A DNA stretch of 64,000 bases from Candidatus Aldehydirespiratoraceae bacterium (GTDB lineage: Bacteria; Actinomycetota; Acidimicrobiia; Acidimicrobiales; Aldehydirespiratoraceae). Shown one piece after another: positions 1-44,681 of the stretch. The position numbers and the translations under genes are program-made. How positions within the stretch are numbered: the stretch's first letter is position 1; each line of letters begins with the position of its first letter. The notes below the pieces were generated by a model that ran no database searches, was not told where the DNA came from, and was given only the letters and a program-made list of their open reading frames with translations. The stretch lies in NCBI GenBank assembly GCA_965198315.1, contig OZ240616.1, positions 2,536,351-2,600,350 of the forward strand. Direction: 5' to 3'.

Positions 1-380
1 CCGCTGGGCTGGTTCTGTTGCCTCTTTTGCGTGATCCCACCAGCGACACCTATCCGTTTTCGACTTACCCGATGTTCGCCACGGACCGTGGCCAGATTCA
101 CAGCATTGCCACCGCAGTGGAACGAACCAACGACGACTTCGCGCGGCTGTCGCCCAAATTGATCGCAGGAACCGACGAAGCGGTGCTCGCCTCGGTGACC
201 GTCAAGCAAGCGGTACGGCTTGGTGAGGCAGAGATTCTCTGTGAGGAGATCCTTGAGCGACTTGGTCCCGGTCGCCAAGTTGAGGTGCGCACCGAGACGC
301 TCGATGTTGTGGAGCTCAGCGTGGAGGGTTCAACCGACTCCACGGTCACCGTGTACGCGACTTGCGGAGGTGAATCGTGA
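1..380 (+). CDS. Hypothetical protein, probably 5'-truncated by the window edge
   Basis: The frame is open from nt 3 with no upstream stop. The ORF track gives 18..380. The TGA stop overlaps the GTG start of the next gene (GTGA at 377-380). No family recognised. Confidence 0.4.
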   Translation, partial: AGLVLLPLLRDPTSDTYPFSTYPMFATDRGQIHSIATAVERTNDDFARLSPKLIAGTDEAVLASVTVKQAVRLGEAEILCEEILERLGPGRQVEVRTETLDVVELSVEGSTDSTVTVYATCGGES

Positions 381-1258
381 CGCAGCGATTGGCCATGTTG
401 CGTATTCTCGTCTTCGCGTACGCAGCGGTGTGGACGATAGTGCGAACGCCGCATCTGCTGGACACCATCGACTTGTCGTCGCGCCGCTTCGAAGCGATCG
501 GCCCACTGTGGTGGCTCAACGAGCCCGTACCAGCACTGGTGACAGTCGCAGCCGTCGTGGTCACGCCCATCGCCTGTGGTGCCGCCGCCTTGGGCTGGCG
601 ATATCGCTGGTCCTCGCTGGTCGGGGTAGCAGGCTTCCTTTTCCTCACCACCTACCGGAACTCTTGGGGTCAGATCTTCCACACCGAGAACCTGGTGGTG
701 CTGCATCTCTGTGTTTTGGCCCTGTTCCCGATGGCTTGCGCGTATTGGTCGATGGACAAGGTCGCGGTGCCGGCCGATCACGAAGAACTCGCGGGTTCGA
801 TCGTCAAGGCGTTATCGGTGCTTACGGTCGGCACCTATTTCTTGGCGGGTATCGCCAAGCTGAGAATCAGCGGTCTCGGCTGGATCGATGGCGACGTGTT
901 GCGTCATCAGATTGCTTTCGACAATGCCCGAAAGGAGCTGCTCGGCGATCCGACTGCACCATTCGGGGCGCTGATGTTGCGCAATTCGTGGACACTCGCA
1001 CCAGCGGCAATAGTTGCCATCGCGGTCGAATTGGCAGCGCCTGTGGCTCTCGTTGGCCGCAGAGCAGCGTGGGTGTGGGCCGGTTTGGCTGTGGCCTTTC
1101 ATCTGGTGATCCTCGCCGTGATGGCGATTGTCTTCCCGTACCACCTCATCGGCATTGCTCTGGCACCGTTGCTCCCGGTCGAACGCCTTGGCACTACCGT
1201 TGCAGCGTGGCATTGCCGATTCCGGAGACGCTCGACGCGATTACGGCCGACTGGCTGA
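377..1258 (+). CDS. Polytopic membrane protein, HTTM-like domain candidate
   Basis: 293 aa with several hydrophobic helices. The N-terminal LAMLRILVFAYAAVW resembles the start of HTTM (vitamin-K-carboxylase-type) domains. Start overlaps the upstream stop. Confidence 0.5.
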   Translation: MTQRLAMLRILVFAYAAVWTIVRTPHLLDTIDLSSRRFEAIGPLWWLNEPVPALVTVAAVVVTPIACGAAALGWRYRWSSLVGVAGFLFLTTYRNSWGQIFHTENLVVLHLCVLALFPMACAYWSMDKVAVPADHEELAGSIVKALSVLTVGTYFLAGIAKLRISGLGWIDGDVLRHQIAFDNARKELLGDPTAPFGALMLRNSWTLAPAAIVAIAVELAAPVALVGRRAAWVWAGLAVAFHLVILAVMAIVFPYHLIGIALAPLLPVERLGTTVAAWHCRFRRRSTRLRPTG

Positions 1259-2391
1259 CCCTGGCTTTGCGCCGGCGCCAGGTCATCTCTGAAGAGACCA
1301 CGGTGCTCAGCCGCACAATCGAAGTTCTTGGTGTCGGTGAAGGATTCGCCGCCGAACTGGCGCGGATTCACCTCACCTATGAACTCGGTTCTGGTCCGGC
1401 GACGGTTATCGCCAAGATCCCCACTTCGGTAGAGGACAACCGCAACGGATCAGAGATGCTCGGCGTGTACGAGCGGGAACTACGGGTCTACGAACAGATC
1501 CTCCCCGAGATCGACGTGTTGGCCCCGCGCCTCTATTACGGCGACATCGAAGTCAATCCGGATGCGGCGCGGCAGTTGGAGCGGATTCGCAGAATGGAGC
1601 GCCTGCCCATCTGGTTGCTGCGCCTGATCATGTTGCTGCTGATCCGCTTTGCGAAACCTAAGACCTTTCCGAGCATCTTGCTTCTCGAGGATCTGGCCCC
1701 TGCTGTGATCGGCGATCAGGTTCAGGGGTGTGACGTTGAGCGGGCAGGCGAAGCGCTTGAGGCCGTCGCTCGATTGCATGCCGCGACTTGGCAGGATCGG
1801 CGTCCAGCAGAGCGCTATTGGCTGGTTTCATCAGCGATTGCACCCCGCCTCTTCCATGCGGGATCTCTTAGTGCTCGACGAGGGTTCCTGAAGAACTACG
1901 GGCAGTACCTCAGCGATCACACTCGTGAACTGTACGAAACGACCCGCAAAGACAATATTGATCGGACGATTCGGTTACACAGCGACGTTCCCCAATGCAT
2001 GCTCCACGGTGATTTTCGGCTCGACAATATGTTCTTCGCTGCCGGCGGAGGGTTACGCGCTCTGATCGACTGGCAGTTGTCGAGCTTTGGTCCGGCGGTG
2101 TCCGATATTGCTTACTTCATCTGTGGCTCGATCGACCCCGATGTCCCGGAAAGTGAAATCGACGCCCTCTTGGCTCGATACCACAAAGCGCTGGTTTTTG
2201 CTGGCGTCACGGACTACCCACTTGATGATCTGACAGCACACTATGTCGACGTTTTGGTGGTGCTGCTAGCTCGCATGGCTTCAGTTGACTTGCTCGACCT
2301 TGGAGAACAGGACGGACGGGGCGCAGACTTGGTGTCAGTATGGATAAAGCGACTCGATGCCCGGATGGCACGGGTGAGTTCGGGAAGGTAG
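1207..2391 (+). CDS. Phosphotransferase family protein (APH / ecdysteroid-kinase-like fold)
   Basis: This is the C-terminal part of the 723-aa ORF. Motifs: LLLEDLAP, catalytic HGDFRLDNMFF, and IDWQ (Mg-binding D). A GTG at 1207 is in frame. The start is uncertain and overlaps the previous gene by about 50 nt. Confidence 0.75.
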   Translation: MALPIPETLDAITADWLTLALRRRQVISEETTVLSRTIEVLGVGEGFAAELARIHLTYELGSGPATVIAKIPTSVEDNRNGSEMLGVYERELRVYEQILPEIDVLAPRLYYGDIEVNPDAARQLERIRRMERLPIWLLRLIMLLLIRFAKPKTFPSILLLEDLAPAVIGDQVQGCDVERAGEALEAVARLHAATWQDRRPAERYWLVSSAIAPRLFHAGSLSARRGFLKNYGQYLSDHTRELYETTRKDNIDRTIRLHSDVPQCMLHGDFRLDNMFFAAGGGLRALIDWQLSSFGPAVSDIAYFICGSIDPDVPESEIDALLARYHKALVFAGVTDYPLDDLTAHYVDVLVVLLARMASVDLLDLGEQDGRGADLVSVWIKRLDARMARVSSGR

Positions 2392-2393
2392 CG

Positions 2394-3329
2394 ATGGCGT
2401 CAGACGGTGCAGCATCAGGCGGTGCAGGGGTATCGGAGATCTTTGACTCCGAGGCGTGGAGTTTGGTGGCGGGTTTTGAGACTCTGACCGATCTCACCTA
2501 TCACCGTGCCAAGACACAGGGCACGGTGAGGATCGCTTTCAACCGCCCTGAAGTGCGCAATGCCTTTCGGCCTCACACCGTTGATGAGTTGTATCGCTGT
2601 CTCGATCACGCTCGCATGTCGACTGACGTCGGCTGTGTTCTTCTCACAGGCAACGGTCCTTCACCCAAAGACGGCGGTTGGGCCTTCTGTTCGGGAGGTG
2701 ATCAGCGGATTCGTGGCAAATCCGGCTACCAGTACGCCACGGGTGAAACGGCCGACACAGTCGACGCATCACAAGCGGGGCGATTGCACATTCTCGAGGT
2801 CCAACGACTGATCCGGACGATGCCGAAGATTGTGATCGCGGTTGTGTCCGGATGGGCCGTCGGCGGAGGCCATAGCTTGCATGTCACCTCGGATCTCACC
2901 GTCGCCAGCGAAGAATTCGCCATCTTCAAACAAACTGACACCGATGTGGCCAGCTTCGACGGTGGCTTCGGTTCTGCGTATCTGGCTCGTCAGGTCGGCC
3001 AGAAACGGGCTCGTGAAATATTTTTTCTGGGACGCAACTATTCGGCTCAGCAAGCTTTTGAGATGGGGATGGTCAATGCGGTTGTTCCCCACGACCGCCT
3101 GGAAGTGGTTGCACTCGAGTGGGGGGCGGAGATCAACTCAAAGAGTCCCACGGGCCAGCGAATGGCCAAGTTCGCCATGAATTTGATCGATGACGGGCTC
3201 GTTGGTCAGCAAGTGTTCGCCGGCGAGGCAACTCGACTTGCTTACATGACCGACGAGGCCGTGGAGGGACGCGACGCTTTCCTTGAGAAACGAGACCCCG
3301 ATTGGTCAAGCTTCCCCTGGTATTTCTGA
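2394..3329 (+). CDS. menB: 1,4-dihydroxy-2-naphthoyl-CoA synthase
   Basis: Crotonase fold with MenB-typical strings: RIAFNRPEVRNAF, FCSGGDQR, GWAVGGGHSLHV, EGRDAFLEKRDPDWSSFPWYF. The ATG at 2394 lies directly after the upstream TAG (2389-2391). Confidence 0.9.
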   Translation: MASDGAASGGAGVSEIFDSEAWSLVAGFETLTDLTYHRAKTQGTVRIAFNRPEVRNAFRPHTVDELYRCLDHARMSTDVGCVLLTGNGPSPKDGGWAFCSGGDQRIRGKSGYQYATGETADTVDASQAGRLHILEVQRLIRTMPKIVIAVVSGWAVGGGHSLHVTSDLTVASEEFAIFKQTDTDVASFDGGFGSAYLARQVGQKRAREIFFLGRNYSAQQAFEMGMVNAVVPHDRLEVVALEWGAEINSKSPTGQRMAKFAMNLIDDGLVGQQVFAGEATRLAYMTDEAVEGRDAFLEKRDPDWSSFPWYF

Positions 3330-3330
3330 C

Positions 3331-4002
3331 TCACAGGTTTGGAATACGCCAGTCAACCGGTTCACGTCCGGCTTCGATGAGCGCCGTGTTGGCCCTGCTG
3401 AACGGTCTTGTTCCAAAAAAGCCGTTGTGCGCGGAGAGGGGCGAGGGATGGACAGACTCGACGATGACGTGCTTGCCAGAGTCAATCAATGACCGCTTTT
3501 TTCGGGCGGCGGCTCCCCAGAGAATGAAAACGACTCTTTGTTCTTTGGCATCCACACAGCGAATCACCTCGTCGGTGAATGTCTCCCAACCGTGGCGTTG
3601 GTGGCTGGCGGCTCGATGAGCTCGCACAGTGAGGGTGGTGTTGAGCAGCAGCACTCCGTTGCGAGCCCAAGTTTCGAGGTTGCCGTGGTTGGGAGGTTCG
3701 ATCCCGAGATCTTGCTCCAGCTCTGCGAAAATATTGACTAGAGACGGGGGTACCTGCACGCCATGACTCACCGAAAAGCAGAGCCCATGGGCTTGGCGCG
3801 GACCGTGGTAGGGATCCTGGCCGAGAATCAGAACTTTCACTTGAGCCAAGGGAGTCAAGTGAAGTGCCGCGAACACCTCTTCATGGGGTGGATAGACCTC
3901 ACCAGTCATGCGCTCTTGGCGCACGTAGGCCATGAGTTCGCGCCAGTAGGGCTTGTCGAACTCTTTACGGAGTACCGGATTCCAATCCGTGGTAGGTGCC
4001 AT
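3331..4002 (-). CDS. ung: Uracil-DNA glycosylase, family 1
   Basis: Motifs: GQDPYHGPRQAHGLCFSV, LLLNTTLTV, HPSPLSA. 223 aa. Confidence 0.9.
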   Translation of the reverse strand: MAPTTDWNPVLRKEFDKPYWRELMAYVRQERMTGEVYPPHEEVFAALHLTPLAQVKVLILGQDPYHGPRQAHGLCFSVSHGVQVPPSLVNIFAELEQDLGIEPPNHGNLETWARNGVLLLNTTLTVRAHRAASHQRHGWETFTDEVIRCVDAKEQRVVFILWGAAARKKRSLIDSGKHVIVESVHPSPLSAHNGFFGTRPFSRANTALIEAGREPVDWRIPNL

Positions 4003-4028
4003 GCCCCAACGTCGCTAGACGCTTCGCC

Positions 4029-5009
4029 TCAGAAGGGCCGGGTGCCGATCACAGAAGCGCGCTCCATCACCCGAATGTCGGGGTAATAATCACTCGACGC
4101 GTAATGCTGCACCGCGGCATTGTCCCAAAACACAACCGTGTCAGGTTCCCAGCTCAAGCGGAATTGGTATTCCACTGTCTTGGCTTGGTCTGAAAGGTGT
4201 TTGATTAACTTCACGCTCTCAACCTCGTCAAAACCTTCAATGTGTGAGGTGAAATAGGTGTTGACGTAAATCAGCTTGCGTCCCGTTACCGGGTGGGTTC
4301 GCACGACTGGATGACGTACCAAAGGATAACGCTCGCGCATTTCTTCCTGTTGGCCCTCTGGCACCTGGCTCGCGAAGGCGAGCATGTAGTCATGGATCGC
4401 GTAGAGGTCGTCGATCCGTTCCTTGGTCTCGTCATCCAACCCGTCGTAGGCCGCGCCCATGTCGGCAAAGAGGGTGTCGCCACCAGTGGCGGGAACTTCG
4501 ATGGCGTGCAGAATCGCTCCCATCGAAGGAATCTGACGCCAAGTCACATCATGGTGCCAACCGTTTTCAAACCCCCCGGTGTCAGCACCTTTCTCGAAGC
4601 GCACTAGTTCCGGGTGTTGCTCGTTACCAGTGATGAAGGGATGGATCTCCAATTCTCCGAAACGTCGGGCGAACGCCACATGTTGCGCGGAAGTGAGTGG
4701 CTGGTCGCGAAAGAAAATGACCTTGTAGTCGGTCAACGCCTGGGCCACTTCAGCGATTGTCGAATCTGGCAACTCAGATGAAATATCGATGCCGCGAATC
4801 TCCGCGCCGAGCGTCACACCGCAGGGTATGGCCTCAATATAGTTGAACTGTGGGCTGGCGAGACGTTGACGTTCCGATGCGAGGTGCAGGAACGGTCCGA
4901 GCGTCACATCGAAACGTTCGATGCGAACCCGGCCCGGTGTGACGTTGCCGGCAGGATCACTGGTTCCAGCTTCGACTTCAACTTCGGTAACGGCCATCGG
5001 GATCCTCAC
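4029..5009 (-). CDS. TauD/TfdA-family Fe(II)/2-oxoglutarate dioxygenase
   Basis: WHHDVTW (HxD iron ligands), GGDTLFADM, and VVFWDNAAVQH near the C-terminus. The start may be the internal M at 4997. Confidence 0.85.
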   Translation of the reverse strand: MRIPMAVTEVEVEAGTSDPAGNVTPGRVRIERFDVTLGPFLHLASERQRLASPQFNYIEAIPCGVTLGAEIRGIDISSELPDSTIAEVAQALTDYKVIFFRDQPLTSAQHVAFARRFGELEIHPFITGNEQHPELVRFEKGADTGGFENGWHHDVTWRQIPSMGAILHAIEVPATGGDTLFADMGAAYDGLDDETKERIDDLYAIHDYMLAFASQVPEGQQEEMRERYPLVRHPVVRTHPVTGRKLIYVNTYFTSHIEGFDEVESVKLIKHLSDQAKTVEYQFRLSWEPDTVVFWDNAAVQHYASSDYYPDIRVMERASVIGTRPF

Positions 5010-5109
5010 TGCGCTGCGGTCGTCGGTCTCGTGAGTTTAGGGCGCATCGTCGGGCGATCACGAGTTTTGCGGTCGGGAGATCCCGCATCGACTGGTAAGT
5101 CCGGAAGCA

Positions 5110-6357
5110 CTAGGTCCAGAGATCGGCGATGGGTAGAGCGATCAGGCTGTCGCCGAGTTGGATGCGTCGGTCGCCGGTGTGGAAGACGATTCCGACAACG
5201 AAATCCGTTCCGACCTCGTCAAGTCGTTCACGAAGAACAGCCATCGACCTGGCATCGGCGGGTCGGGCGACCGTGGAGGCCTTCACTTCCACTGCGATCA
5301 CATGTCCGTCCGCTGACTCGATGACGGCATCGATCTCGAGTCCGTCGCGGTCGCGAAAGTGGTGGAGTCGTGCGGAGGTCTCGGACCAAGTGAGCTGTTT
5401 CGCGAGTTCCGCGATCACGAACGACTCGATCAGCGGTCCGAGCGAAGAGTCGTTTAGTCGAGCCAGTGCGGTGGGAGTCTTGCCGATGATCGCAGCGCTG
5501 AGTCCTGTGTCGCAGGCATAGAGCTTCGGGCGATGCACGATCTTGGTCGTGACATTGCGACTCCACGCTGGAACACGGTGAACGACGAAAGTCGTCTCTA
5601 TCCAAGGCTCGTAGACTTGGGCGGTTGATCGGTCGATACCGACACGGTCGGCGAGACGCGAGAGGATTAGTTCCGAACCGCTCGTCGCAAGCAGCAGTCT
5701 GGCCATAGCGAGCAACGCGTCGAATCGGCGGAGGTCGGTGGCCGTTTCAACCTCCCGCCGTAGAACGGTCTCCAAGTAGCGCTCGAACCAGCGACGGCGT
5801 ATGCTCCTGTCGAAGCTCTGGACTTCGGGGTATCCGCCCTGGCAGACGAACTCGAGGTACTCGCCTCGGCCAGGTGTTGCGCCCCGATGCTGGATCAAGC
5901 CTGACGGATCGCGAAAGGCGCGGTCTATGAGGTCATCGGGCCCGTCGTGGCGTTCGCCCATCGACAATGGCCACAGGGTGATGAGGTCGATCCGTCCGGC
6001 GAGACTCTCGGTGAGATTGGGCGATGTCAGGAAGTTCGTGGATCCGGTGATTATGTACTGCCCCGGTGAGCGCGACTGGTCGAGACGTTGCTTGATGGCC
6101 AGGATCAACCGGTCGCCACCGCGTTGGATCTCGTCGATGACTGCCGGAGTCCCCAGCGTGTCGAGGAACAAGGAGGGGTCGTCGAGCGCGGCCGAAAGAT
6201 CATCTTCGCGATCCAACGTCACCAAGGGCGCAGACAACTGGTTCGCCAGCAACCCGGCGAGAGTACTTTTGCCCACTTGGCGGGCACCTTGGAGCACTAC
6301 GGCGCGGAACGCCGAATGCGAGTCCGCGGTGGACTTGAGACTGCGTCGCGGGATCAA
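5110..6357 (-). CDS. AAA-type ATP-binding protein with DUF4143-like C-terminal region
   Basis: Walker A GARQVGKST and IDEIQ (Walker B-like). 415 aa, the typical architecture of orphan 'ATP-binding protein' (AAA_14 + DUF4143) genes. Confidence 0.75.
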   Translation of the reverse strand: MIPRRSLKSTADSHSAFRAVVLQGARQVGKSTLAGLLANQLSAPLVTLDREDDLSAALDDPSLFLDTLGTPAVIDEIQRGGDRLILAIKQRLDQSRSPGQYIITGSTNFLTSPNLTESLAGRIDLITLWPLSMGERHDGPDDLIDRAFRDPSGLIQHRGATPGRGEYLEFVCQGGYPEVQSFDRSIRRRWFERYLETVLRREVETATDLRRFDALLAMARLLLATSGSELILSRLADRVGIDRSTAQVYEPWIETTFVVHRVPAWSRNVTTKIVHRPKLYACDTGLSAAIIGKTPTALARLNDSSLGPLIESFVIAELAKQLTWSETSARLHHFRDRDGLEIDAVIESADGHVIAVEVKASTVARPADARSMAVLRERLDEVGTDFVVGIVFHTGDRRIQLGDSLIALPIADLWT

Positions 6358-6523
6358 CTGGTTCTCGTCGATGCCTGAAGCCTAGCTCGTAACCAACAAT
6401 TTGTCGATCTCGATTCCAGCATTTTGTCGTAAGATCTTGTTCTGCCAGGGCCTCCTTCAGATTTCGGTGTTCCAACATCCAGATTCTGGAGCCCCCAACC
6501 ATCTCGCCGCGGACCCACTCCCG

Positions 6524-6557
6524 GCTTCAATCCGAAGAGCCGCTTAATCCGAAGAGC
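6524..6557. repeat. Short tandem direct repeat (gcttCaatccgaagagc / gctt-aatccgaagagc) in the ATPase-reductase intergenic region
   Basis: Read directly. Two 16-17 nt units are 1 nt apart, and the 12-nt core aatccgaagagc is identical (6529-6540, 6546-6557). Confidence 0.6.
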
Positions 6558-6675
6558 TTGGCCCCTCCTGTTCCCGTCACGGCGAACGAGACCGAGACGG
6601 GTATACGAAACCACAGTGCCAACTACACCCAGAGTATGTGCAACGGTCGGGTGGCTAACTCACAAGCGCGTAGCT

Positions 6676-7210
6676 GCTGTAGCGTCGGGGGGTGGGCAAC
6701 AAGGCGCGTGACGTGGTTGTTATCGGAGCTGGGCCGGCTGGAGCGGCCGCGGCGATACAGGCCGCTCGGGGTGGAGCCTCAGTAACTGTCTTCGAGAAGG
6801 CCTCGGCGGGTCGCGACAAGGTGTGTGGAGATGGACTAACGCCGCGAGCGGTACACGCCCTCAACCAACTTGATATCGACATGAGCGACGCCCATCGCAT
6901 AGACGGCCTGCGGATGATCGCCAACAAGTCTGGTGGCAAAGTCACCTGAGTCCAACCGCTGTAGCGTCGGGGGGTGGGCAACAAGGCGCGTGACGTGGTT
7001 GTGATCGGGGCTGGGCCTGCCGGGGCGGCAGCGGCGATCCAGGCCGCAAGAGGTGGGGCCTCAGTAACAGTTTTTGAGAAAGCACCACCAGGCCGCGACA
7101 AGGTGTGTGGAGATGGACTAACGCCGCGCGCCGTTCATGCCCTCAACCAACTCAATATCGATATGAGCGATGCCCATCGCATTGACGGTCTGCGGATGAT
7201 CGCTAACAAG
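6676..7210 (+). repeat. Tandem 282-bp-period duplication covering the RBS and first 79 codons of the geranylgeranyl-reductase-family gene
   Basis: Copy 1 is 6676-6928 and copy 2 is 6958-7210. The first 45 nt are identical. By hand alignment there are then about 32 mismatches over the 253-nt copy length. Confidence 0.9.
6692..6949 (+). pseudogene. Truncated N-terminal fragment (85 codons) of a geranylgeranyl-reductase-family flavoprotein
   Basis: The translation MGNKARDVVVIGAGPAGAAAAIQAARGG... matches the first 79 aa of the 408-aa gene downstream except at 3 residues. It then runs into 6 unrelated codons and a TGA. Confidence 0.7.
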
Positions 7211-8200
7211 ACCCGCCGTGAACTTCCGTGGCCCGCCAATGGGTCGTTCGCTCCTAATGGCGCGGTGTGGCCTCGCCGGCTTCTTGACGCCCACCTGATG
7301 GCCGCCGCCGCAGAAGCGGGCGCTGAGATCATCTGGAATACCGAGGCCACGCCGATCCTTCAAGATGATGGCCGCGTGATCGGGGTGACCACCGGTTCGG
7401 ACAAATGGCACGCTGGACTAACGGTGGTTGCAACTGGCGCACCCGGCAATGTCGCGCGGATGCTTGGTGCAGGGCGAGTAGAGAACGAACCGCATGGACT
7501 GGCCATCCGAAGTTACGCGGCCTCTCCCCGCCATGCCGAAAGGCACCTCGAAGCTTGCCTGACCCTGCGCGATCCTGACGGCATACCGATCCCGGGGTAC
7601 GGATGGATGTTTCCGGCGGGAGACGGCACTGTCAATATCGGAGTAGGCGCTTTGTCGACGATGAAGGGCTACAAGAAGCTCAACTTGAATCGTCTGATTG
7701 ACTCCTACCGTGACCTGATCCGCGATGAGTGGGAACTCGGTGAATACCTTGAGCGGCCGAGGGCATGGAGGTTGCCGATGAGCGCGCAACGCCGTCATGG
7801 CGATGGCTGGCTGGCGATCGGCGATGCCGCTGGCCTCATCAATCCGATGAATGGCGAAGGCATCGACTACGGGCTTGAGTCGGGGGTTCTGGCCGCGGAT
7901 TTGTTTCTCGCCGATCCTTCTAGTGCTCCGGCGAATTACGACCGGCTCGTTGGCGAACGCTTTGATGCTTTCTTGCGAACCGGTCGGCGCTTCAGTTTCT
8001 TGATCGGTCACCCCTTGATATTGCGGTCCGGCCTGCGCTTGGCCGTGGGAACCCAAACAATCACCAACATCACCTTGCAGGTAATGGGGAATCTGCTTGA
8101 TGCCGATGCTCCGGGCGCGGCCGGCAGAGTTCTGCGCATTGCCGATCGCGCTCTGGCCTTGGCCGACCCCCTCCTCCGCAAAACCCGCGCCCCAGCCTAA
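6974..8200 (+). CDS. Geranylgeranyl reductase family FAD-dependent oxidoreductase
   Basis: GxGxxG dinucleotide fold VVVIGAGPAGAAAA, KVCGDGLTPRA, and GDAAGLINPMNGEGI (the family's C-terminal FAD motif). GTG start. Confidence 0.85.
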   Translation: MGNKARDVVVIGAGPAGAAAAIQAARGGASVTVFEKAPPGRDKVCGDGLTPRAVHALNQLNIDMSDAHRIDGLRMIANKTRRELPWPANGSFAPNGAVWPRRLLDAHLMAAAAEAGAEIIWNTEATPILQDDGRVIGVTTGSDKWHAGLTVVATGAPGNVARMLGAGRVENEPHGLAIRSYAASPRHAERHLEACLTLRDPDGIPIPGYGWMFPAGDGTVNIGVGALSTMKGYKKLNLNRLIDSYRDLIRDEWELGEYLERPRAWRLPMSAQRRHGDGWLAIGDAAGLINPMNGEGIDYGLESGVLAADLFLADPSSAPANYDRLVGERFDAFLRTGRRFSFLIGHPLILRSGLRLAVGTQTITNITLQVMGNLLDADAPGAAGRVLRIADRALALADPLLRKTRAPA

Positions 8201-8271
8201 TCCGACAGACCGCGCAGATGCCCGCGGTTCCGGCGATACACAGTTCTGCCTGCCCGGCGTATGCTGAATAG

Positions 8272-9498
8272 ATGAGTGATGTCACGCCTGCCGAAGAAGA
8301 TCTGCCTCTCATCATCTCTGTCGACGATCACGTGATGGAGCCGAAGGATCTCTGGCAGCAGCAGCTTCCCGCGAGCGTGCGAGATCGTGGGCCGAGGGTC
8401 GTTCAAGAGCGGATTCGACTCAAGTTCGAAGGGGGCCACTACGGCTTTGAGCGTCATGACCCGGACGGGCAGATGTGCGACGTGTGGCTATATGAGGACA
8501 GCGTCACTCCGACCGGTTTTCTGCATGGACCTGCCGGTGTCCCCCGCGAAGAACAGCGCAACGTGGCTGCGGTATACGAAGACTTGCGCCCGGGGACGTA
8601 TCGGCAGATCGATCGGCTGTCAGACATGGACCTCAATCATGTGGAGGCGGCAATCAACTATCCCAACATCTTCCCCCGCTTCTGTGGGCAGGGATTTCTT
8701 GAGCGTGACGACAAGGAACTCGCTCTCGAATGCCTCAAGATCTATAACGACTGGATCATCGATGATTGGGGCGGTGGCGCTGGCAAAGGCCGCCTGATCC
8801 CCTTGACATTGGTTCCTTTATGGGATCCGGAAATGTCTGCCGACGAAGTCCGGCGCTGTGCAGCCAAGGGAAGCTACGCCATTGCCTTTTCGGAGAACCC
8901 GTCAAAATTGGGCTGTGCGACCATGTACAGCGGTGAATGGGATGTCTTGTGGCAGGCATGTGAGGAGACAGAAACCACCGTTTCAATGCACATCGGTTCG
9001 TCTTCATCGATGCCTTCAACCTCGCCGGACGCGCCGTTGGCCACATCAATGTCGTTGTACGCCCAAAACGCCGAAGGTTCCATGGTCGACTGGGTATTTT
9101 CGGGAACGCTCGAGCGTTTCAAGAAAATCAAGATCGCCTATGCCGAGAGTCAGGTGGGGTGGATGCCGTTCCAGATGGAACGGATGGACTCGGTGTTCCG
9201 AGAAGGCCGTGGCGGTGTGGGCGGTGATGGGCCGCTGCCGAGTGAAATCGTCAAGGGCCGAGTGTTCGGCTGCATTTTCGACGATCTGGTAGGCCTCAAA
9301 CAGCGTGACGATGTTGGCATCGACCAGATTTTGTTCGAAACCGACTATCCGCATTCCGACGGTACCTTCCCGCACTCCCGCAAAGTGGCCCACAGCATGT
9401 TTGCAGCCACCAAGATGAACGCCGAGGAGTGTTACAAGGTGATGCGCGGCAACGCCATCCAGGCCTACGGATTGAAACGCTTCGGAATCACCGAGTAG
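8272..9498 (+). CDS. Amidohydrolase_2 (ACMSD-like) family metal-dependent hydrolase/decarboxylase
   Basis: ISVDDHVMEP (N-terminal metal ligands DxH) and FETDYPHSDGTFP (C-terminal D/H). Paralog of 19556..20752. Confidence 0.85.
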   Translation: MSDVTPAEEDLPLIISVDDHVMEPKDLWQQQLPASVRDRGPRVVQERIRLKFEGGHYGFERHDPDGQMCDVWLYEDSVTPTGFLHGPAGVPREEQRNVAAVYEDLRPGTYRQIDRLSDMDLNHVEAAINYPNIFPRFCGQGFLERDDKELALECLKIYNDWIIDDWGGGAGKGRLIPLTLVPLWDPEMSADEVRRCAAKGSYAIAFSENPSKLGCATMYSGEWDVLWQACEETETTVSMHIGSSSSMPSTSPDAPLATSMSLYAQNAEGSMVDWVFSGTLERFKKIKIAYAESQVGWMPFQMERMDSVFREGRGGVGGDGPLPSEIVKGRVFGCIFDDLVGLKQRDDVGIDQILFETDYPHSDGTFPHSRKVAHSMFAATKMNAEECYKVMRGNAIQAYGLKRFGITE

Positions 9499-10627
9499 AC
9501 GCCAGCGAAGCTGACCCGAGAGCAGCGAGTGGACTCGTGTAATCAAGCCCCTGAGCTTCGGCGACATGTTGCTCAGTCAACAATCCTCGGTGGGTGTGCA
9601 AGCCGTTGCGAAGATGTTCGTCGTCGAGCAGAGCGCACTCAAGTCCCTTCTCAGCTAGCGCCAGGGTGAAAGGAAGGGTTGCGTTGTTGAGTGCGTAGGT
9701 GGATGTTTGGGGAACCGCCCCAGGCATGTTGGCGACGCAGTAGTGGACGACATCATCGATGATATAGGTCGGTTCGGTATGAGTGGTGGGCCTCGATGTC
9801 GCGAAGCAACCCCCTTGGTCGATCGCTACGTCAACTAACACCGAACCGGGTTTCATGCGCTTGACTAGTTCGGGCCCTACCAGTTTTGGGGCGGTGGCAC
9901 CCTTGATCAGTACAGCACCAATTACCAGATCGGCGGCGAGCACCTGTTCTTCGAGGGCGGCGCCCGTTGAGTAGAGGGTCACCAAACCGTTTCCGAAGCG
10001 GCGGGAAAGCCGGTTGAGGACTGCAAGATTACGGTCCAGAACCGTGACTTGTGAGCCCATGCCGATGGCCATTTCGATGGCGTTCTCCCCCACGACTCCC
10101 CCGCCGAGGACGAGCGTTCGCGCGGGGGCGACCCCGGGTACCCCGCCGAGCAACCGTCCTGAACCGCCATTTGGGGCTTCGAGACAATGGGCACCGGCTT
10201 GAATTGACATGCGGCCCGCTACTTGGGACATGGGTGCCAGAAGAGGTAGTCCTCCGTCGTCGTCGGTGACAGTTTCATAGGCGATACAGGTTGCGCCGCT
10301 GGCGAGGAGTTCTTCGGTTTGTGCTGTGTCTGGGGCGAGATGGAGGTACGTGAACAGGACATGATCGGGACCCAACATGGCTCGTTCGGCAACCTGGGGT
10401 TCTTTGACTTTCACGATCAACTCTGATTCGGTGAAAACCGCCTCCGCTTCGGGGTCGATACGTGCTCCCGACGCCGAATAGTCGGCGTCAGAGGCACCGA
10501 TGCCATTTCCAGCACCACTCTGAACCAGAACCCGGTGACCGCGCATAGTGAGTTCTCGCACGCTTGTGGGGGTTAGACCCACTCGACGCTCGGCAATCTT
10601 GATCTCTGTGGGAACCCCGACACGCAT
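9488..10627 (-). CDS. ald: Alanine dehydrogenase
   Basis: MRVGVPTEIKIAERRVGLTP, KVKEP, NAD fold VLGGGVVG, DVAIDQGGC, YCVANMPGAVP. I chose the ATG at 10627. The ORF track's upstream extension to 10723 is not Ald-like. Confidence 0.9.
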   Translation of the reverse strand: MRVGVPTEIKIAERRVGLTPTSVRELTMRGHRVLVQSGAGNGIGASDADYSASGARIDPEAEAVFTESELIVKVKEPQVAERAMLGPDHVLFTYLHLAPDTAQTEELLASGATCIAYETVTDDDGGLPLLAPMSQVAGRMSIQAGAHCLEAPNGGSGRLLGGVPGVAPARTLVLGGGVVGENAIEMAIGMGSQVTVLDRNLAVLNRLSRRFGNGLVTLYSTGAALEEQVLAADLVIGAVLIKGATAPKLVGPELVKRMKPGSVLVDVAIDQGGCFATSRPTTHTEPTYIIDDVVHYCVANMPGAVPQTSTYALNNATLPFTLALAEKGLECALLDDEHLRNGLHTHRGLLTEQHVAEAQGLDYTSPLAALGSASLASTR

Positions 10628-10648
10628 TTTGGCTACCTCTGAGAACAG

Positions 10649-10683
10649 AATACGCGTGTCTTTGGAGAATGTGTATGCGTATT
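10649..10683. promoter_or_regulatory. Inverted repeat AATACGC-N21-GCGTATT in the ald/lrp divergent promoter region (candidate Lrp/AldR-type operator)
   Basis: The repeat arms were read at 10649-10655 and 10677-10683. The region is visibly AT-richer than its flanks. The function is inferred only. Confidence 0.3.
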
Positions 10684-10766
10684 GAGCGTCGATATGCCCT
10701 ATTAGCACAATATCCTGTTGCAATTCTTAGTATCTACAAGAGATAATTGTTCATAGGAGTCAGATT

Positions 10767-11237
10767 GTGTTAGATGAACTTGATGCCACCGATCGCGAAA
10801 TTTTGCGGGTCTTGCAGGTTGATGCCCGTATCACCAATGCAGCTCTCGCCGAGAAGGTCCACCTGTCTCCTTCGGCTTGCTTGCGGCGAGTGCGTCGCCT
10901 CGAAGAGCTCGGAGTGGTGACCGGTTATGTCGCGGTCCTCGACCGCAAGCTCATCGGGCGGGGCACCTCCGTCTTTGTTGAGATCGCCCTGACCAGTCAG
11001 CAGGAAGACCATCTCGACGCTTTCGAGGAGGCCGTCGCTGACGTCACAGAAATACTCAGCTGTCATCTGATGGCAGGCAACAGCGACTATCTCCTGCATG
11101 TCGCGGCGACCGATGTTGCCGACTACGAACGTATCCACAAGGCCTACCTGGCAAGACTCCCCCACGTCGGACAACTGCGTTCCAGTTTTGCCCTGCGCAC
11201 CGTCTGCGATCGCAAAGCCCACCGCTTCGGCAGTTGA
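10767..11237 (+). CDS. Lrp/AsnC family transcriptional regulator
   Basis: The N-terminal HTH LDATDREILRVLQVDARITNAALAEKVHLSPSACLRRVRRLEELGV is followed by a RAM/ACT-like domain. It is divergent from ald, like the AldR-ald arrangement. Confidence 0.9.
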   Translation: MLDELDATDREILRVLQVDARITNAALAEKVHLSPSACLRRVRRLEELGVVTGYVAVLDRKLIGRGTSVFVEIALTSQQEDHLDAFEEAVADVTEILSCHLMAGNSDYLLHVAATDVADYERIHKAYLARLPHVGQLRSSFALRTVCDRKAHRFGS

Positions 11238-11286
11238 ATCCCGCTGAGGCACCAACTCGCCGCGCAAGCCGATCCAGGTAGCGGGT

Positions 11287-14127
11287 TCAGGAACCACCAA
11301 TGTGGTACATCTCAGCGGCGGGTTTGAGGGGGCGGGCGTACCACAGCGGGCGGCGCAGACCTCCCGGGCCGGGCGCTGGGCGAGTCATTGAGAGCCACTC
11401 CCTGTAGGCCTCGCGGCTCTTGGCCGTGTCGACCACCACATCGCCGTACTGGTCGCCTGCTTCGGCGGGGGTGACACAGACTCGCTGGTGCCAACACTGC
11501 ATCCCGGAGATCGGATCTGGTTGCACCGAGAAAGTCAGGTTCTGGTGCACGCCGGTGTCCTTCCACCAGATGCGCTGACTGTCGGGATCCTCGGAATCGA
11601 AACGGCGGATCCCGTCGGTACGGGTCAGTTTCCAGGACTGGCCACCGTCGCTGTTGTCGATACGGTCGATCTCGGCTCTGCCCGTTCCCCACGAACGAGC
11701 CTTGTCCTCTTCGATACGCCAGCGACCCATGTGATGCGAAGCTGCAACCACACCCGGTCGGATTCCTTCAGTGCGCCAGGCTTGAATGACGAAATGGCCG
11801 ATGCGGGTGGAGATGCGCACCAAACCGTTCTCTTCGATTCCGAGTTTCTCGGCATCGCTCGGGTGAATCCACAAAGGATGTCGATGGCTGATCTCATTGA
11901 GCCACTTGGAGTTCGATGATCGGGTATGAATCAATGTCGGTATCCGAAAGGTCGGCAGAAGAATCCGCTCGTTGCCTTCGATGTCGAGGTCCTGATGGTG
12001 GACATGGGACTTGATCCAGGTGGGAGTTGCGTATTCGCGCCAGCCCCAATCTGCCAGCGTCGTCGAGAAGAGTTCCAGCTTCTTTGACGGCGTGGGAAAG
12101 CCTTCTTTGACTTCGCCATCTACTTCGACAGCCGGTGACCCCTCGCCCAGGTCTGCCAGAGTGATCTCGCTGAGATGGTCTGGGTTGCCGTCCCAGGTAC
12201 CTATGGTCCCGGGCTTGCGAAACACCTGATCATCGCCCTTGATGCAATCCGCGATGCCCTCTGGGGTGACGATCCGCTCATAGGGCGTCACCATGTCACC
12301 CGGCACCGCGAATGCACCGACGTCGCGCATGTATTCGAGCGGCGACTTGCCGGCCTCAGCAGCAGCTTCGGCTAGTCCGGGCACCGACTCGGCGAACATG
12401 GTTCCGTAGTACTCGTCGACCGATATCGGCGTGCCGGGGTTGGTGTCGGACTCGAACCACTGCCGGATTCCCCGGGTTCCGTCAGGGTCGATGTGCCAGG
12501 AGAGGTCGATCCAGAACTCATTCTCCTCTGACACTTCACCGGGGTTGAACTCGTGGCTGCGAGCCTTCGGCCCCAAAGACTCACCGCGGATCTCTGCGTA
12601 ACGACGCATGACTGGTTGGCGAAAGCCGATCCAGCGACCGTTGTGGGTCTCGAAGGAGGCCACGTCGTGTCGTTCGGTGCCTACGCCCATGGGCAGCACA
12701 TAGTCGGCATACCAAGCGGTTTCGGACCAGGTAGGGGTGAGCGCTACATGGCAGCGCACCTTTGACTCATCAGTCAGGGCCTCCAGCCAGCTGAACCCGT
12801 CCGGATTGGTCCAGATGGGGTTGTAGACACGGCTGAAGTAGACATCGAGAGTTCCCCGCCCCTCGTTGAGGAAGTGCGGCAGCAGGATCGACATCTCGTG
12901 GTGCGACAACGGATATTCCCGAGGCCACAACAACTCGTTCCACTGGTGCAGCGGTGGAGCACCCTTCGGTTGGGCCGGCTTGAACTTGTTCCAACCGTTG
13001 CCGCTCGTTCCTCCGACCGTGGCCACTGAACCGGTCAAGACGTTGAGGAAGAACAGGCAACGTGCAGTTTGCCAACCGCCGAGGTTGCCTGCGGCTGCGG
13101 CTCGCCAGTTGTGCGAGGCGAGCTTGGTCGGGTGCGCACCGATGATCTGCGCGATCTCACGCAGTTGCTCTGCGTCAACACCACAGATCTCTTCTGCTGC
13201 TTCGGGGGTGTATTCGCGATATGCGTCCAGCAAGGCGACTTCGAGCGAATCGAACTCCAGTTGCAGATCCGGGCGGGTCTCGCGCAGGTAGGTCTCCCAG
13301 TTGACCCAACGACGCACGAACTCACGCTCCCAGGTGCCGTTCTCGATCAACAGACGGGCGATCGTCAACAACAAGACGGGTTCCGTGCCAGGCCAGGCAG
13401 CCAGCCAGTAGTCGGCTTTGGCACCGGTGTTCGAGAGCCTCGGGTCGACACAGATTACCGTCGCGCCCTTTGTCTGAGCCTCGATGATCCGTTGGGCATG
13501 AGGGTTGAAATAGTGGCCGGCCTCGAGGTGCGACGAGATCAAGAAGATCACTTCGGCGTTGGCGAAGTCTGATGACGGACGGTCGTGGCCCATCCATGAC
13601 TGGTAGCCGATACGGGCATTTGAAGAACAGATGTTGGTATGGCTGTTGTGCCCGTCTACACCCCATGCTTTCAGAACACGATCTGCATAGCCGTCCTCAC
13701 CGGGACGCCCCACGTGATACATCACGCTGTTGTGACGGCCCTCGTCGAGCGCGGTAGCGATGCGTGCTCCTATGTCGCTGAGTGCTTCATCCCAGGACAC
13801 CCGCTCCCATTGCCCTGACCCCCGCGCTCCAACCCGACGCATCGGGTGAAGAATCCGTTCGGTGTCGTTGACCTGATTGAGAGTTGCGGGTCCTTTGGCG
13901 CAATTGCGACCCCGACTGGCCGGATGGAGAGGATTGCCCTCGATCTTGTCTATCTGGTTGGTCTCGTGGTTGACATGGGCGAGCAGACCACAGGCCGCTT
14001 CACAATTGAAACAAGTCGTGGGTATGAGGCTGTGGTGGCGTTCTACGCGGTTCGGCCAAGCTTTGGCGTCCAATGAGGTGTGATCGTGCCACTCCTCGTG
14101 GGGTGGGTATTGCTTCAGGTCGGTCAT
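11287..14127 (-). CDS. Molybdopterin (bis-MGD) oxidoreductase catalytic subunit, no Tat signal
   Basis: 946 aa. N-terminal FeS0 motif CFNCEAACGLL...C(N)AKG, and DMSO-reductase-family length and layout. There is no twin-arginine leader in MTDLKQYPPHEEWHDH... Confidence 0.85.
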   Translation of the reverse strand: MTDLKQYPPHEEWHDHTSLDAKAWPNRVERHHSLIPTTCFNCEAACGLLAHVNHETNQIDKIEGNPLHPASRGRNCAKGPATLNQVNDTERILHPMRRVGARGSGQWERVSWDEALSDIGARIATALDEGRHNSVMYHVGRPGEDGYADRVLKAWGVDGHNSHTNICSSNARIGYQSWMGHDRPSSDFANAEVIFLISSHLEAGHYFNPHAQRIIEAQTKGATVICVDPRLSNTGAKADYWLAAWPGTEPVLLLTIARLLIENGTWEREFVRRWVNWETYLRETRPDLQLEFDSLEVALLDAYREYTPEAAEEICGVDAEQLREIAQIIGAHPTKLASHNWRAAAAGNLGGWQTARCLFFLNVLTGSVATVGGTSGNGWNKFKPAQPKGAPPLHQWNELLWPREYPLSHHEMSILLPHFLNEGRGTLDVYFSRVYNPIWTNPDGFSWLEALTDESKVRCHVALTPTWSETAWYADYVLPMGVGTERHDVASFETHNGRWIGFRQPVMRRYAEIRGESLGPKARSHEFNPGEVSEENEFWIDLSWHIDPDGTRGIRQWFESDTNPGTPISVDEYYGTMFAESVPGLAEAAAEAGKSPLEYMRDVGAFAVPGDMVTPYERIVTPEGIADCIKGDDQVFRKPGTIGTWDGNPDHLSEITLADLGEGSPAVEVDGEVKEGFPTPSKKLELFSTTLADWGWREYATPTWIKSHVHHQDLDIEGNERILLPTFRIPTLIHTRSSNSKWLNEISHRHPLWIHPSDAEKLGIEENGLVRISTRIGHFVIQAWRTEGIRPGVVAASHHMGRWRIEEDKARSWGTGRAEIDRIDNSDGGQSWKLTRTDGIRRFDSEDPDSQRIWWKDTGVHQNLTFSVQPDPISGMQCWHQRVCVTPAEAGDQYGDVVVDTAKSREAYREWLSMTRPAPGPGGLRRPLWYARPLKPAAEMYHIGGS

Positions 14128-19555: not shown

Positions 19556-20752
19556 ATGGCCTCGGTCACTGATTTCCCGAAAATCATCAGCGTTGACGAC
19601 CATGTCGTGGAACCGGCAAACATCTGGACAGACCGCCTTCCCGCCAAGTATCGAGACATCGGCCCGCGGATCGTGATTGCGCCGCAAGGAGAGATGACCC
19701 TCGAAGGGGGCACCTGGGTTGAGCAGCCCGGAACCGGCGACAAGATGGCGGCCTGGTGGCACTACGAGGATCACCGTTACCAGATCAAGCACATGATCGC
19801 CTGTGCGGGCACTCCACCCGAAGAGGTCACCATGGCCGGAGTCACCTATGACGATATTCGTCCGGGTTGCTACCGCGCAGCGGATCGGCTGGCGGACATG
19901 GATATCAACCATGTCGAAGCGTCGTTGTGTTTCCCCAACTACCCCCGTTTCTGCGGTCAGTTGTTCGCCGAGCGCTCCGACAAGGAGCTCTCGAAGCTCT
20001 GTGTCGAGGCATACAACGATTGGATGGTCGACGAATGGTGTGGCGACTCGGGCGGGCGTTTGATCCCGTTGTGCATCGTGCCGTTGTGGGACGTCGAACT
20101 GGCTGCCGCGGAGATCCGCCGCAACGCAGCCCGGGGCGTTACCGCCACCGCCTGGTCGGAGTTGCCGGCGTGGCTGGGTCTGCCCTCGATTCATTCCGGG
20201 TATTGGGACCCCTTCTTTACGGCTTGCGAAGAAACAGGGACAGTCATTGCCATGCACATCGGGTCTGGTACGCGCACGGTTCGCACATCCGAAGACGCAC
20301 CGACGCTAGTGACCGCCACGATGATCTCAGCCAACAGCGCGGCTTCTATGGTCGACTTTCTGTTTTCGGGGGTGCTGCACCGCTACCCGACTCTGAAACT
20401 GATGTATGCGGAGAGCCAGATCGGTTGGATTCCCTACTTCATTGAACGAGCCGACGAAAATTATCTGACTCATCAATGGGCTCAGGGTGAGGAACGGCTA
20501 TCGGAGAGGCCGTCGTTTTATTACTACCGGCAGGTGTTCAGCTGCTTTTTCAACGACTCCGCCGGCATGAAATTGCTTGACGAGGTGGGCGTCGACAATG
20601 TCCTGTTCGAGACCGACTATCCCCACTCCGACGGCACCTTCCCTCATTCCCGGGGAAAAGCCCACTCCTTGTTCGGCCATCTTGACGACGACGCCGTCTA
20701 CAAACTCGCCCGCGGCAACGCCATCAAGCTGCTAAACCTGCCTTTCGACTAA
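19556..20752 (+). CDS. Amidohydrolase_2 family protein (paralog of 8272..9498)
   Basis: ISVDDHVVEP and FETDYPHSDGTFPHSR. It is collinear with the first paralog along its whole length. Confidence 0.85.
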   Translation: MASVTDFPKIISVDDHVVEPANIWTDRLPAKYRDIGPRIVIAPQGEMTLEGGTWVEQPGTGDKMAAWWHYEDHRYQIKHMIACAGTPPEEVTMAGVTYDDIRPGCYRAADRLADMDINHVEASLCFPNYPRFCGQLFAERSDKELSKLCVEAYNDWMVDEWCGDSGGRLIPLCIVPLWDVELAAAEIRRNAARGVTATAWSELPAWLGLPSIHSGYWDPFFTACEETGTVIAMHIGSGTRTVRTSEDAPTLVTATMISANSAASMVDFLFSGVLHRYPTLKLMYAESQIGWIPYFIERADENYLTHQWAQGEERLSERPSFYYYRQVFSCFFNDSAGMKLLDEVGVDNVLFETDYPHSDGTFPHSRGKAHSLFGHLDDDAVYKLARGNAIKLLNLPFD

Positions 20753-21313: not shown

Positions 21314-21400
21314 GGTTGGGCCTGCCCTCGATTCACACCGGGTATCGGGACCCCTTCTTCGAGGCTTGCGAAGAAACAGGGACCGTCATTGCGATGCACA
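21314..21400 (+). pseudogene. 87-nt relic of an amidohydrolase_2 gene (internal fragment)
   Basis: It aligns without gaps to 20172-20258 of the intact gene, with about 10 mismatches by hand. It encodes GLPSIHTGYRDPFFEACEETGTVIAMH versus GLPSIHSGYWDPFFTACEETGTVIAMH. Confidence 0.75.
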
Positions 21401-44449: not shown

Positions 44450-44681
44450 TGGAGCGGAGAAATCGGGTCATCACACCCAGCCTGGGGCGTGGTGTCGTCG
44501 CCACCTTGGTCGATCACGACCGCAACGACGCTGGAACAGACAGTGTACAACCATGGCCCAAAAACACCGCACGGACCAGCCACTAGTAGGCTTATTCCTA
44601 TCTTCGCCTTCGGGTGGAGTGGCCTGCAGCAATCGGTGATGGATACTTTGAGCCAGTGACGGACCGGGCGAGGTGTCGCCC

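Follow-up and report, generated by a model that had tools for sequence, protein, structure and literature searches.

In E. coli conjugation with DNA that has homology to the chromosome on one side only, integrants mostly arise by single crossovers of circularised DNA, and 109-950 bp are found duplicated (PMC3240628). In homology-facilitated illegitimate recombination (HFIR; the work of de Vries & Wackernagel 2002 and of Prudhomme et al. 2002, cited in PMC3240628 and PMC5361080), recipient DNA is usually deleted and the illegitimate join shows microhomology of 3-10 bp. At T6SS effector-immunity, Rhs and CDI loci, displaced cassettes leave orphan gene ends behind, and the observation that copies within one genome group with alleles of other strains has been used to argue that such copies are not duplications (Kirchberger et al. 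2017, PMC5361080). Islands that integrate by means of an integrase produce another kind of duplication, namely the attL and attR repeats at their borders.

We examined a stretch of 64,000 nucleotides (the window) in which the 5' end of a reductase gene is present twice in tandem, next to a variable gap between this gene and a TauD-family gene. We propose, with a probability of roughly 0.8, that the tandem repeat is a recombination scar of islet turnover in the TauD-reductase gap, and neither an in-place duplication nor a selected mini-gene. The related loci used for comparison come from uncultured Acidimicrobiales, several of them labelled Ca. Aldehydirespiratoraceae, and the contigs that were compared are designated by the letter L and a number. 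The features of the locus are as follows.

3950-8150, no strand: tract of about 4.2 kb with the TauD gene, islet A, the duplication and the reductase gene, 99-100% identical to L161.
4029-5009, minus strand: gene for a TauD-family dioxygenase, which is conserved and borders the variable gap on the left, 99-100% identical to L001, L007 and L161.
5010-6645, minus strand: islet A, the variable DNA inserted between the TauD and reductase genes, with an AAA_14/DUF4143 ATPase gene at 5110-6357 on the minus strand.
6646-6927, plus strand: repeat unit 1 (copy 1), 46 nt of upstream DNA and codons 1-79 of a reductase allele; a chimera, of islet-A type to 6727 and of islet-B/L006 type from 6733.
6676-6733, plus strand: conserved 45-nt block (6676-6720) and predicted crossover interval of copy 1 (6727-6733).
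6692-6949, plus strand: 85-aa ORF, 79 N-terminal reductase residues (with GxGxxG) followed by SGGKVT from the upstream DNA of copy 2.
6922-6934, plus strand: novel junction AACAA(G)/TCTGGTGG, at which position -46 of copy 2 directly follows codon 79 of copy 1.
6928-7209, plus strand: repeat unit 2 (copy 2), 46 nt of upstream DNA and codons 1-79 of the intact gene; the reciprocal chimera, of islet-B/L006 type to 7015 and of islet-A/L002 type from 7018.
6958-7018, plus strand: conserved 45-nt block (6958-7002) and predicted reciprocal crossover interval of copy 2 (7015-7018).
6974-8200, plus strand: intact gene for a FAD-dependent reductase of 408 aa, geranylgeranyl-reductase family, MenJ-like (HMM, Pfam).

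The locus resembles Campbell-type integration (PMC3240628) in that an insert lies between direct duplications, which measure 339 bp in the related contigs L162 and L171 and are trimmed to 282 bp in the window, and in that an integrase is not involved. It differs in that the event is natural, concerns alleles that are about 14% diverged and took place in uncultured Acidimicrobiales, where we infer the circular intermediate; moreover, the window's insert would later have been deleted, which leaves a bare tandem repeat. With HFIR the locus has in common a single homologous anchor combined with an illegitimate join, and imprecise junctions beside a conserved gene; here, however, the anchor is present twice, in copies that look like reciprocal chimeras, and microhomology at the window's junction amounts to 1 nt. 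As at T6SS, Rhs and CDI loci, displacement of cassettes beside a conserved anchor gene leaves fragments of the displaced genes behind, and the same phylogenetic argument applies. In those systems it is the variable 3' ends of toxin genes that undergo displacement, and selection acts on the immunity genes that remain, whereas the present duplication concerns the conserved 5' end of a housekeeping-type reductase gene, the remnant is apparently neutral and the insert has been lost. Direct repeats of a gene end that flank an islet while the target gene stays intact also recall attL/attR duplication, but an integrase, a tRNA and a defined att core are lacking here, and the ends of the repeats vary (codons 69, 79 and 97). 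The event is thus of a known kind, a further example that will not surprise specialists.

The intact reductase scores 210.6 bits against the family model TIGR02032, above the cutoff of 158.8, and carries FAD-binding Pfam domains as well as the N-terminal sequence VVVIGAGPAG, which contains the GxGxxG FAD-binding motif. Its best named match is the MenJ equivalog NF045655, where its score of 266.5 bits falls short of the cutoff of 700. A menB gene is located at 2340-3329, about 3.6 kb upstream of the reductase gene; its proximity is suggestive only as a pointer to a MenJ role. The only coding content of islet A is the AAA_14/DUF4143 protein. This protein matches the PADLOC candidate defence family PDC-S01 (PDLC04790, E = 1.2e-133) over its full length, with residues 1-415 aligned to positions 11-419 of the 422 in the model, and its gene can be regarded as a candidate defence gene; a comparison of the same protein with PHROGs gave no match. 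Islet B, an alternative insert found in relatives, encodes an LRR lipoprotein and a 196-aa lipoprotein. Integrase and transposase genes are absent from islet A, islet B and the locus, a tRNA scan of positions 1-14000 detected none, and an Rfam scan returned only a chance-level match and no known RNA family. There is no att core at the islet borders, and the locus therefore does not qualify as an integrase-mediated island. A scan for sigma-70 promoters and terminators across 6300-7300 yielded nothing, and there is no terminator-like site between the copies. Exact-protein look-ups for the 408-aa, 85-aa, DUF4143 and TauD products gave no gene positions.

A repeat search and TRF both identify a direct repeat with a period of 282 nt, in which copy 1 occupies 6646-6927 and copy 2 occupies 6928-7209. 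This bears out the initial annotation, which had described a 282-nt tandem copy of the 5' end of the gene at 6676-6928 and 6958-7210. Those bounds enclose the better-conserved core of the repeat; homology begins 30 nt further to the left, where each unit opens with 30 nt of upstream DNA of about 65% identity (20 of 31 positions match in the leftmost stretch added to the earlier bounds). Over their full length the units differ at 43 of 282 positions, which corresponds to 85% identity. As had also been noted, the core starts with 45 nt (6676-6720 and 6958-7002) that do not contain any difference between the copies. This block is nearly invariant across all close relatives, and gene conversion between the copies, considered as a source of the 45 identical nucleotides, was dropped given that conservation. 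Within codons 1-79 there are 32 nucleotide differences, distributed over the three codon positions as 4, 0 and 28. They affect 29 codons, 26 of them synonymously only, and cause three replacements (S38P, A39P and D61N), so that the earlier counts of about 32 differences, about 26 synonymous codons and three replacements proved exact. Copy 1 then runs into six further codons (SGGKVT) and a stop, again as described before. The formal Nei-Gojobori calculation on the 79 codons (S = 61.8, N = 175.2) gave dS = 0.74 and dN = 0.017, and hence dN/dS = 0.024 (Fisher p ~1e-16). No other gene end in the 64-kb window has a diverged duplicate directly next to it. A further repeat of a gene end, at 43458 and 44696, is 96% identical and flanks an insert of about 1 kb.

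In order to place the two copies we compared each of them with related genomes. None of 11 close single-copy relatives has both copies. Over the 79 codons copy 1 is nearest to L006, with which it shares an identical protein (dS 0.34, dN 0, 17 nt differences), and copy 2 is nearest to L002 (dS 0.30, 17 nt differences), followed by L001 (dS 0.46). The dS of 0.74 between the copies is the same as that between the single-copy genes of L006 and L002 (0.74) and similar to that between L006 and L001 (0.70), while dS in the rest of the gene is only 0.30-0.43 among these three genomes and between them and the window. Quartet sites for copy 1, copy 2, L006 and L002 group copy 1 with L006 and copy 2 with L002 in 17 cases, against 2 and 1 for the alternative groupings, and just 0.6% of 1000 bootstraps unite the two copies. 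The copies are thus not mutual closest relatives, as an in-place tandem duplication would make them. Codons 1 to about 80 of the reductase gene exist in the clade as two deeply diverged allele classes, both functional. One class goes with genomes that carry islet A, and all four single-copy genomes of that kind (L002, L165, L166 and L167) have the class other than that of the coding part of copy 1; the other class is found in the islet-B genome L006, on which the linkage between islet B and the copy-1 class essentially rests. A scan of metagenomes for relatives added just one close locus (L081), whose allele equals that of L004. The fact that the copies are not sisters, together with a dS equal to the divergence between the classes, argues that the wobble-dominated divergence built up in two functional gene lineages. 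The initial annotation had proposed that the copies diverged while both belonged to functional genes and that they were brought together by recombination; both points agree with the placement of copy 1 in the L006 class and of copy 2 in the L001/L002 class.

The gap between the TauD and reductase genes exists in several states among the relatives. It is empty in L001, L007, L163 and L164, and it holds islet A in L002, in L167 and in L166, where an additional insert of 1.6 kb is present. In L006 it holds a gene for a lipoprotein of 198 aa together with 81 nt left over from an LRR gene, an islet different from islet A. The window combines a TauD gene that is 99-100% identical to those of L001 and L007, and about 85% identical to that of L002, with an islet A that is 96-97% identical to that of L002, and the identity to L002 drops to 84% inside copy 1. 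Judging from these alignments, the neighborhood is a mosaic and a hotspot for islets. L165 carries an independent, decayed 5' fragment of the reductase gene on the other side of islet A. This stub differs from L006 by 16 synonymous and 4 replacement changes, and it has a 2-nt frameshift and an A16D replacement in the GxGxxG motif; it represents an independent and older scar. Pfam searches of the L166 insert and of the left neighbor of the L165 stub returned nothing informative. The point at which the repeat ends also varies among events (codons 69, 79 and 97).

A search with the 85-aa ORF led to a protein, P0001 (the same ORF called from codon 8, 78 aa), that is encoded on two contigs of more than 1 Mb. 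One of them is the window's own chromosome of 4.15 Mb, on which a cluster look-up also places the 408-aa reductase, and the other is L161 (2.48 Mb, ENA ERZ25067264). L161 has the same gene order as the window, belongs to a different genome and is 93% identical to the window over 8.2 kb. Its junction is identical to that of the window, and its repeat units differ from those of the window by 2 nt (copy 1) and 4 nt (copy 2) of 282. Sliding windows along the alignment show a tract of about 4.2 kb (from about 3950 to about 8150) with 99-100% identity, within flanks of only 74-95% identity, and the module that bears the scar is therefore common to two genomic backgrounds.

These observations bear directly on the concern that the repeat is an assembly artefact, in which two strain haplotypes would have been joined end to end with a 282-nt overlap of 85% identity retained. 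Such an error would explain why the units come from different allele classes, as two strains would give; the locus is variable among strains, and strain-variable loci are where assembly graphs are prone to break; and a search of the JGI metagenome contig collection did not retrieve a 25-mer spanning the junction. However, the junction is not confined to a single assembly. It recurs, identical, in the independent 2.48-Mb contig L161, which is 6 nt apart from the window in the repeat and 5-26% apart in the flanks, and a related structure with a different junction is present in two more contigs (L162 and L171). Furthermore, the two sides of the junction share 1 nt, which leaves a graph assembler no k-mer to traverse without reads that span the junction, and the 64 kb contain no second diverged tandem of such kind. 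An artefact is very unlikely because it would have had to arise twice in the same form, and we consider it the least probable of the explanations discussed here. Mis-assembly, named in the initial annotation as grounds for rejecting the duplication, is thus contradicted by the same junction in an independent genome.

The protein cluster of the mini-ORF contains a second protein, P0121 (109 aa), which led to contig L162. The order of elements in L162 is TauD, islet A, a reductase fragment that extends from -46 to codon 97, islet B (2.3 kb), and then a -46 upstream region followed by the whole reductase gene. Direct repeats of 339 nt that are 86% identical (L162 positions 3552-3890 and 6181-6519) flank the 2.3-kb cargo. 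The fragment in L162 is of the same allele as copy 1 of the window, from which it differs at 4 of 237 nt, and it stays in frame past codon 79 to codon 97. To the left of copy 2 in L162 lies an upstream region of L006 type, and the right half of the cargo corresponds to the islet of L006 at about 91% identity. L171, a second contig of the same sample, is collinear with L162 at about 96% identity and shows the same layout as far as the contig end; its fragment and junction are identical to those of L162, and the fragment likewise differs from copy 1 of the window at 4 of 237 coding nt. A search via homologues of the lipoprotein did not find an intact islet-B genome with the exact copy-1 allele: three homologues (L168-L170) lie in unrelated contexts, and the fourth is L171, the second example of the L162-type layout.

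The window corresponds to the L162 layout minus L162 positions 3836-6181 (2346 bp), a stretch that runs from codon 80 of the fragment to position -47 of copy 2. We interpret the window's junction as marking where a deletion of about 2.35 kb ended. The microhomology at the junction is 1 nt, short of the 3-10 bp that characterise the illegitimate join in HFIR (PMC3240628), and an imperfect similarity (GGATGAT..CA.AC) occurs nearby. The reverse direction, an insertion into a tandem like that of the window, was rejected as less parsimonious, given that it must recreate codons 80-97 of the same allele.

The allele types within each copy were determined at 37 diagnostic sites, at which the four single-copy islet-A genomes (L002, L165, L166 and L167) agree among themselves and L006 differs. 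In copy 1 the upstream part (unit positions 1-46) has 8 sites of islet-A type (A) and 1 of L006 type (B), and the coding part (47-282) has 6 A and 21 B (Fisher p 7e-4). Copy 2 shows the opposite arrangement, with 0 A and 10 B upstream and 19 A and 6 B in the coding part (Fisher p 4e-5). The switch from A to B in copy 1 falls at unit positions 82-88 (window 6727-6733), and the switch from B to A in copy 2 falls at 88-91 (window 7015-7018). Copy 1 is thus of islet-A type in its upstream part and first 14 or so codons, and its remainder is of the type linked to islet B. Two marks of Campbell-type integration can be recognised here. Direct repeats enclose an insert in L162, and in L171 to the end of the contig, the insert being gone from the window; and the copies are reciprocal chimeras with one shared breakpoint, a pattern from which copy 2 of L162 deviates. 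Reciprocal chimeras with breakpoints only a few nucleotides apart argue for a single homologous crossover, because such a crossover yields exactly these products. The coincidence of the breakpoints is suggestive of a single reciprocal event but does not prove it: the 45-nt block is the longest identical stretch, and independent homologous exchanges would also tend to resolve at its edges. Copy 2 of L162 is L006/L007-like to about unit position 200 and unlike the islet-A type, so that a later exchange in the L162 lineage has to be added to the single-crossover model.

On this basis we propose the following course of events, the order of which is reconstructed from five sampled structural states. 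A fragment of an islet-B genome, consisting of islet B and reductase codons 1-97, would have been circularised by an illegitimate join. A single homologous crossover, placed at the edge of the 45-nt block, would then have integrated the circle into an islet-A genome and thereby doubled the 5' end of the gene, as reciprocal chimeras on either side of islet B. The order of islet A followed by islet B fits the polarity of the crossover. A later illegitimate deletion of 2.35 kb, with 1 nt of microhomology, would have taken codons 80-97 and islet B. It would have stopped just short of the proximal upstream region of copy 2 and so left the intact gene its start signals; copy 2 retains its own 46 nt of upstream DNA including the conserved block, and the gene probably keeps its start signals for that reason. 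Finally, homologous recombination would have spread the resulting module, to judge from the near identity of the 4.2-kb tract to L161.

A different route to the same layout is linear, one-sided HFIR. A donor fragment consisting of TauD, the DUF4143 islet, the upstream region and reductase codons 1-97 would have entered an islet-B genome, anchored by its TauD homology and joined illegitimately on the right; the truncated copy would be the start of the donor's gene, and the later deletion would be as proposed above. This route readily accommodates the uninterrupted succession of islet A, its type of upstream region and copy 1 in the window, L161, L162 and L171; it is moreover an established way of islet gain (PMC3240628, PMC5361080), and in a locus with such a fine-scale mosaic an unsampled haplotype that combines islet A with a copy-1-type allele is possible. 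Yet the coding part is of the other allele class in L002, L165, L166 and L167 alike, and the change of type in copy 1, at unit positions 82-88, coincides with the converse change in copy 2; HFIR therefore needs two extra independent exchanges with coinciding breakpoints, and we consider it unlikely, although it is the strongest competitor of integration by a single crossover. The same evidence bears on the suggestion in the initial annotation that the truncated copy was brought in together with the DUF4143 islet. This is probably wrong: four of four single-copy islet-A genomes have the other class, copy 1 is chimeric, and the part of it that is not of islet-A type is linked to islet B, which still lies between the copies in L162 and L171.

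The 85-aa ORF itself is absent from the single-copy relatives examined. Among the truncated copies of the window, L161, L162 and L171, the variable sites comprise three replacements and two synonymous changes. The replacements that followed truncation (R6S, I11V and H68L) are all at residues that are invariant in the functional alleles compared. Three or more replacements in five changes would have a probability of 0.002 at the gene's own dN/dS, and the neutral expectation is 74% replacements. Four further states are present in all truncated copies and in no functional allele (coding nt 76 C, 84 A, 96 T and 210 A); all of them are synonymous, and the best explanation is that they date from a time when the source allele still functioned as a gene. 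The fragment thus appears to be under relaxed constraint and drifting since truncation, and we interpret the 85-aa ORF as a young pseudogene by-product.

The alternative that the initial annotation had offered, maintenance of the ORF by selection, takes its fullest form as an old in-place duplication whose 85-aa FAD-binding mini-ORF is under purifying selection, for example as a small protein or a regulatory upstream ORF. The dN/dS of 0.024 between the copies invites this view, as do a start context that is the same as that of the real gene and an ORF that is intact in two genomes. It is opposed by the fact that the copies are not sisters and differ by a dS equal to the divergence between the classes in single-copy genomes. 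The protein of copy 1 is that of L006, so no period of separate constraint is required. The single-copy relatives are without the ORF, the fragment in L162 and L171 has another length and another tail along with the three replacements at invariant residues, and the fragment in L165 is frameshifted. We regard a selected mini-ORF as highly improbable, scarcely more credible than an artefact of assembly; the lack of the ORF in single-copy relatives and the excess of replacements over synonymous changes since truncation weigh against the earlier suggestion in any form.

A recombination scar at this position has consequences for how such loci are read. A very low dN/dS between a gene and a truncated neighbor need not signal selection on the fragment, since it can be inherited from two functional alleles, and the 85-aa ORF should accordingly be annotated as a gene remnant. 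An unusually full set of structural states is preserved at this locus among the genomes compared (an empty gap, islet A alone, islet B alone, the two islets separated by a stub, and the tandem scar), which documents the integrase-free gain and loss of islets beside a housekeeping-type gene in an uncultured lineage, and the scar module appears to move among genomic backgrounds via homologous recombination.

At least two independent stub events are visible at the locus, the stub of L165 and that of L162 and the window. A similar scar, of a 3' end, is present elsewhere in the window at 43.4-45.0 kb. Somewhat short of even odds, we tentatively suggest that the 5' end of the reductase gene with its 45-nt block serves as a recurrent, integrase-free landing pad, to which islets are added by single-crossover integration of circularised DNA and at which each of them leaves a stub. 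The cargo would be small islets that encode, for instance, a candidate defence ATPase or LRR surface proteins. If this suggestion is true, stubs from different alleles would record the order in which islets were acquired, and this would be a general and under-recognised route of islet gain in uncultured marine Acidimicrobiales.

We found a repeated gene end elsewhere in the window, where the segment 43458-43728 occurs again 1.24 kb downstream, at 44696-44966, with 96% identity. The repeated part comprises the final ~90 codons of a gene for a 414-aa secreted protein (42484-43728) and ends exactly at the stop codon, and ~1 kb of small ORFs lies between the two copies. This pair resembles the gene-end scar formed by the reductase 5'-end copies and looks like another of that kind, here at a 3' end. 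The ORF that reads its second copy and a further repeat pair in the window are as follows.

44673-44966: 97-aa ORF, reading the second copy of the secreted-protein gene end
20172-20258 and 21314-21400: 87-nt repeat, 89% identity, copies 1.1 kb apart

The 87-nt pair may reflect paralogous genes. Two coding low-complexity arrays were also observed (28043-28252 and 42608-42751), one of them GAC/GAT-rich with a 33/72-nt period and the other ACC/ACG-rich with a 12/24/36-nt period.

At the reductase locus, both 5'-end copies carry a 45-nt block (6676-6720 and 6958-7002), which consists of 16 nt of upstream sequence and the first ~10 codons and is nearly invariant, wobble positions included, in relatives whose divergence elsewhere is ~10-20%. 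None of the Rfam families searched matches this block. It contains the hexamer TAGCGT six nucleotides ahead of the GTG start, which might be a -10 element for a transcript with a short leader or none.

In L165, which has a single reductase copy and islet A (the variable insert next to the reductase), a decayed reductase 5' fragment with a 2-nt frameshift and the changes A16D and M64K is found at 3165-3327, on the far side of the islet; the left context of this locus differs as well, with a UvrD helicase and a 243-aa protein, the latter bearing a weak M78-peptidase match, where TauD otherwise stands. In L162, where islet B lies between a reductase fragment and the full-length copy, a frameshift near codon 252 splits the full-length copy (6228-7455) into two called ORFs; it is either a real pseudogene or the product of an error in an 8x contig.

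The lone gene of the strain-variable islet A encodes an AAA_14/DUF4143 ATPase (5110-6357, minus strand), which is a full-length match to PDC-S01, a candidate defence family in PADLOC (E = 1e-133), and has no match in NCBIfam or PHROGs. Two features were located in the non-coding part of the islet.

6524-6557: 17-nt unit GCTTCAATCCGAAGAGCC in 1.9 copies, upstream of the DUF4143 gene
L166 3172-4789: 1.6-kb insert within the right part of the islet in this single-copy genome

The insert has no similarity to any of the other fetched loci with which it was compared, and its three short ORFs, all on the minus strand, gave no matches in a Pfam search. Because coverage of this contig is 4x, it is possible that the three represent one frameshifted gene.

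The TauD gene (~3800-5000) is 99-100% identical to its counterparts in L001, L007 and L161, the last being a second genome with the same tandem junction, and the adjoining DNA is 77-95% identical. The window and L161 share a near-identical 4.2-kb module (~3950-8150). Both the TauD gene and this module have the look of tracts that recombined, or swept, recently across backgrounds differing at species level.

More mosaic boundaries were noted in the window. At 10528-10977 identity is 97-99% to L002, another single-copy genome, and ~80% to L001 and L006; from ~11130 on, L001 matches the window at 92-98% identity, and homology to L002 and L006 stops there.

The 196-aa lipoprotein of islet B has homologues, 59-68% identical, in L168, L169 and L170, which come from the same sample series and encode them in unrelated genomic contexts. 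This gene family appears to be mobile cargo without a tie to the reductase locus.
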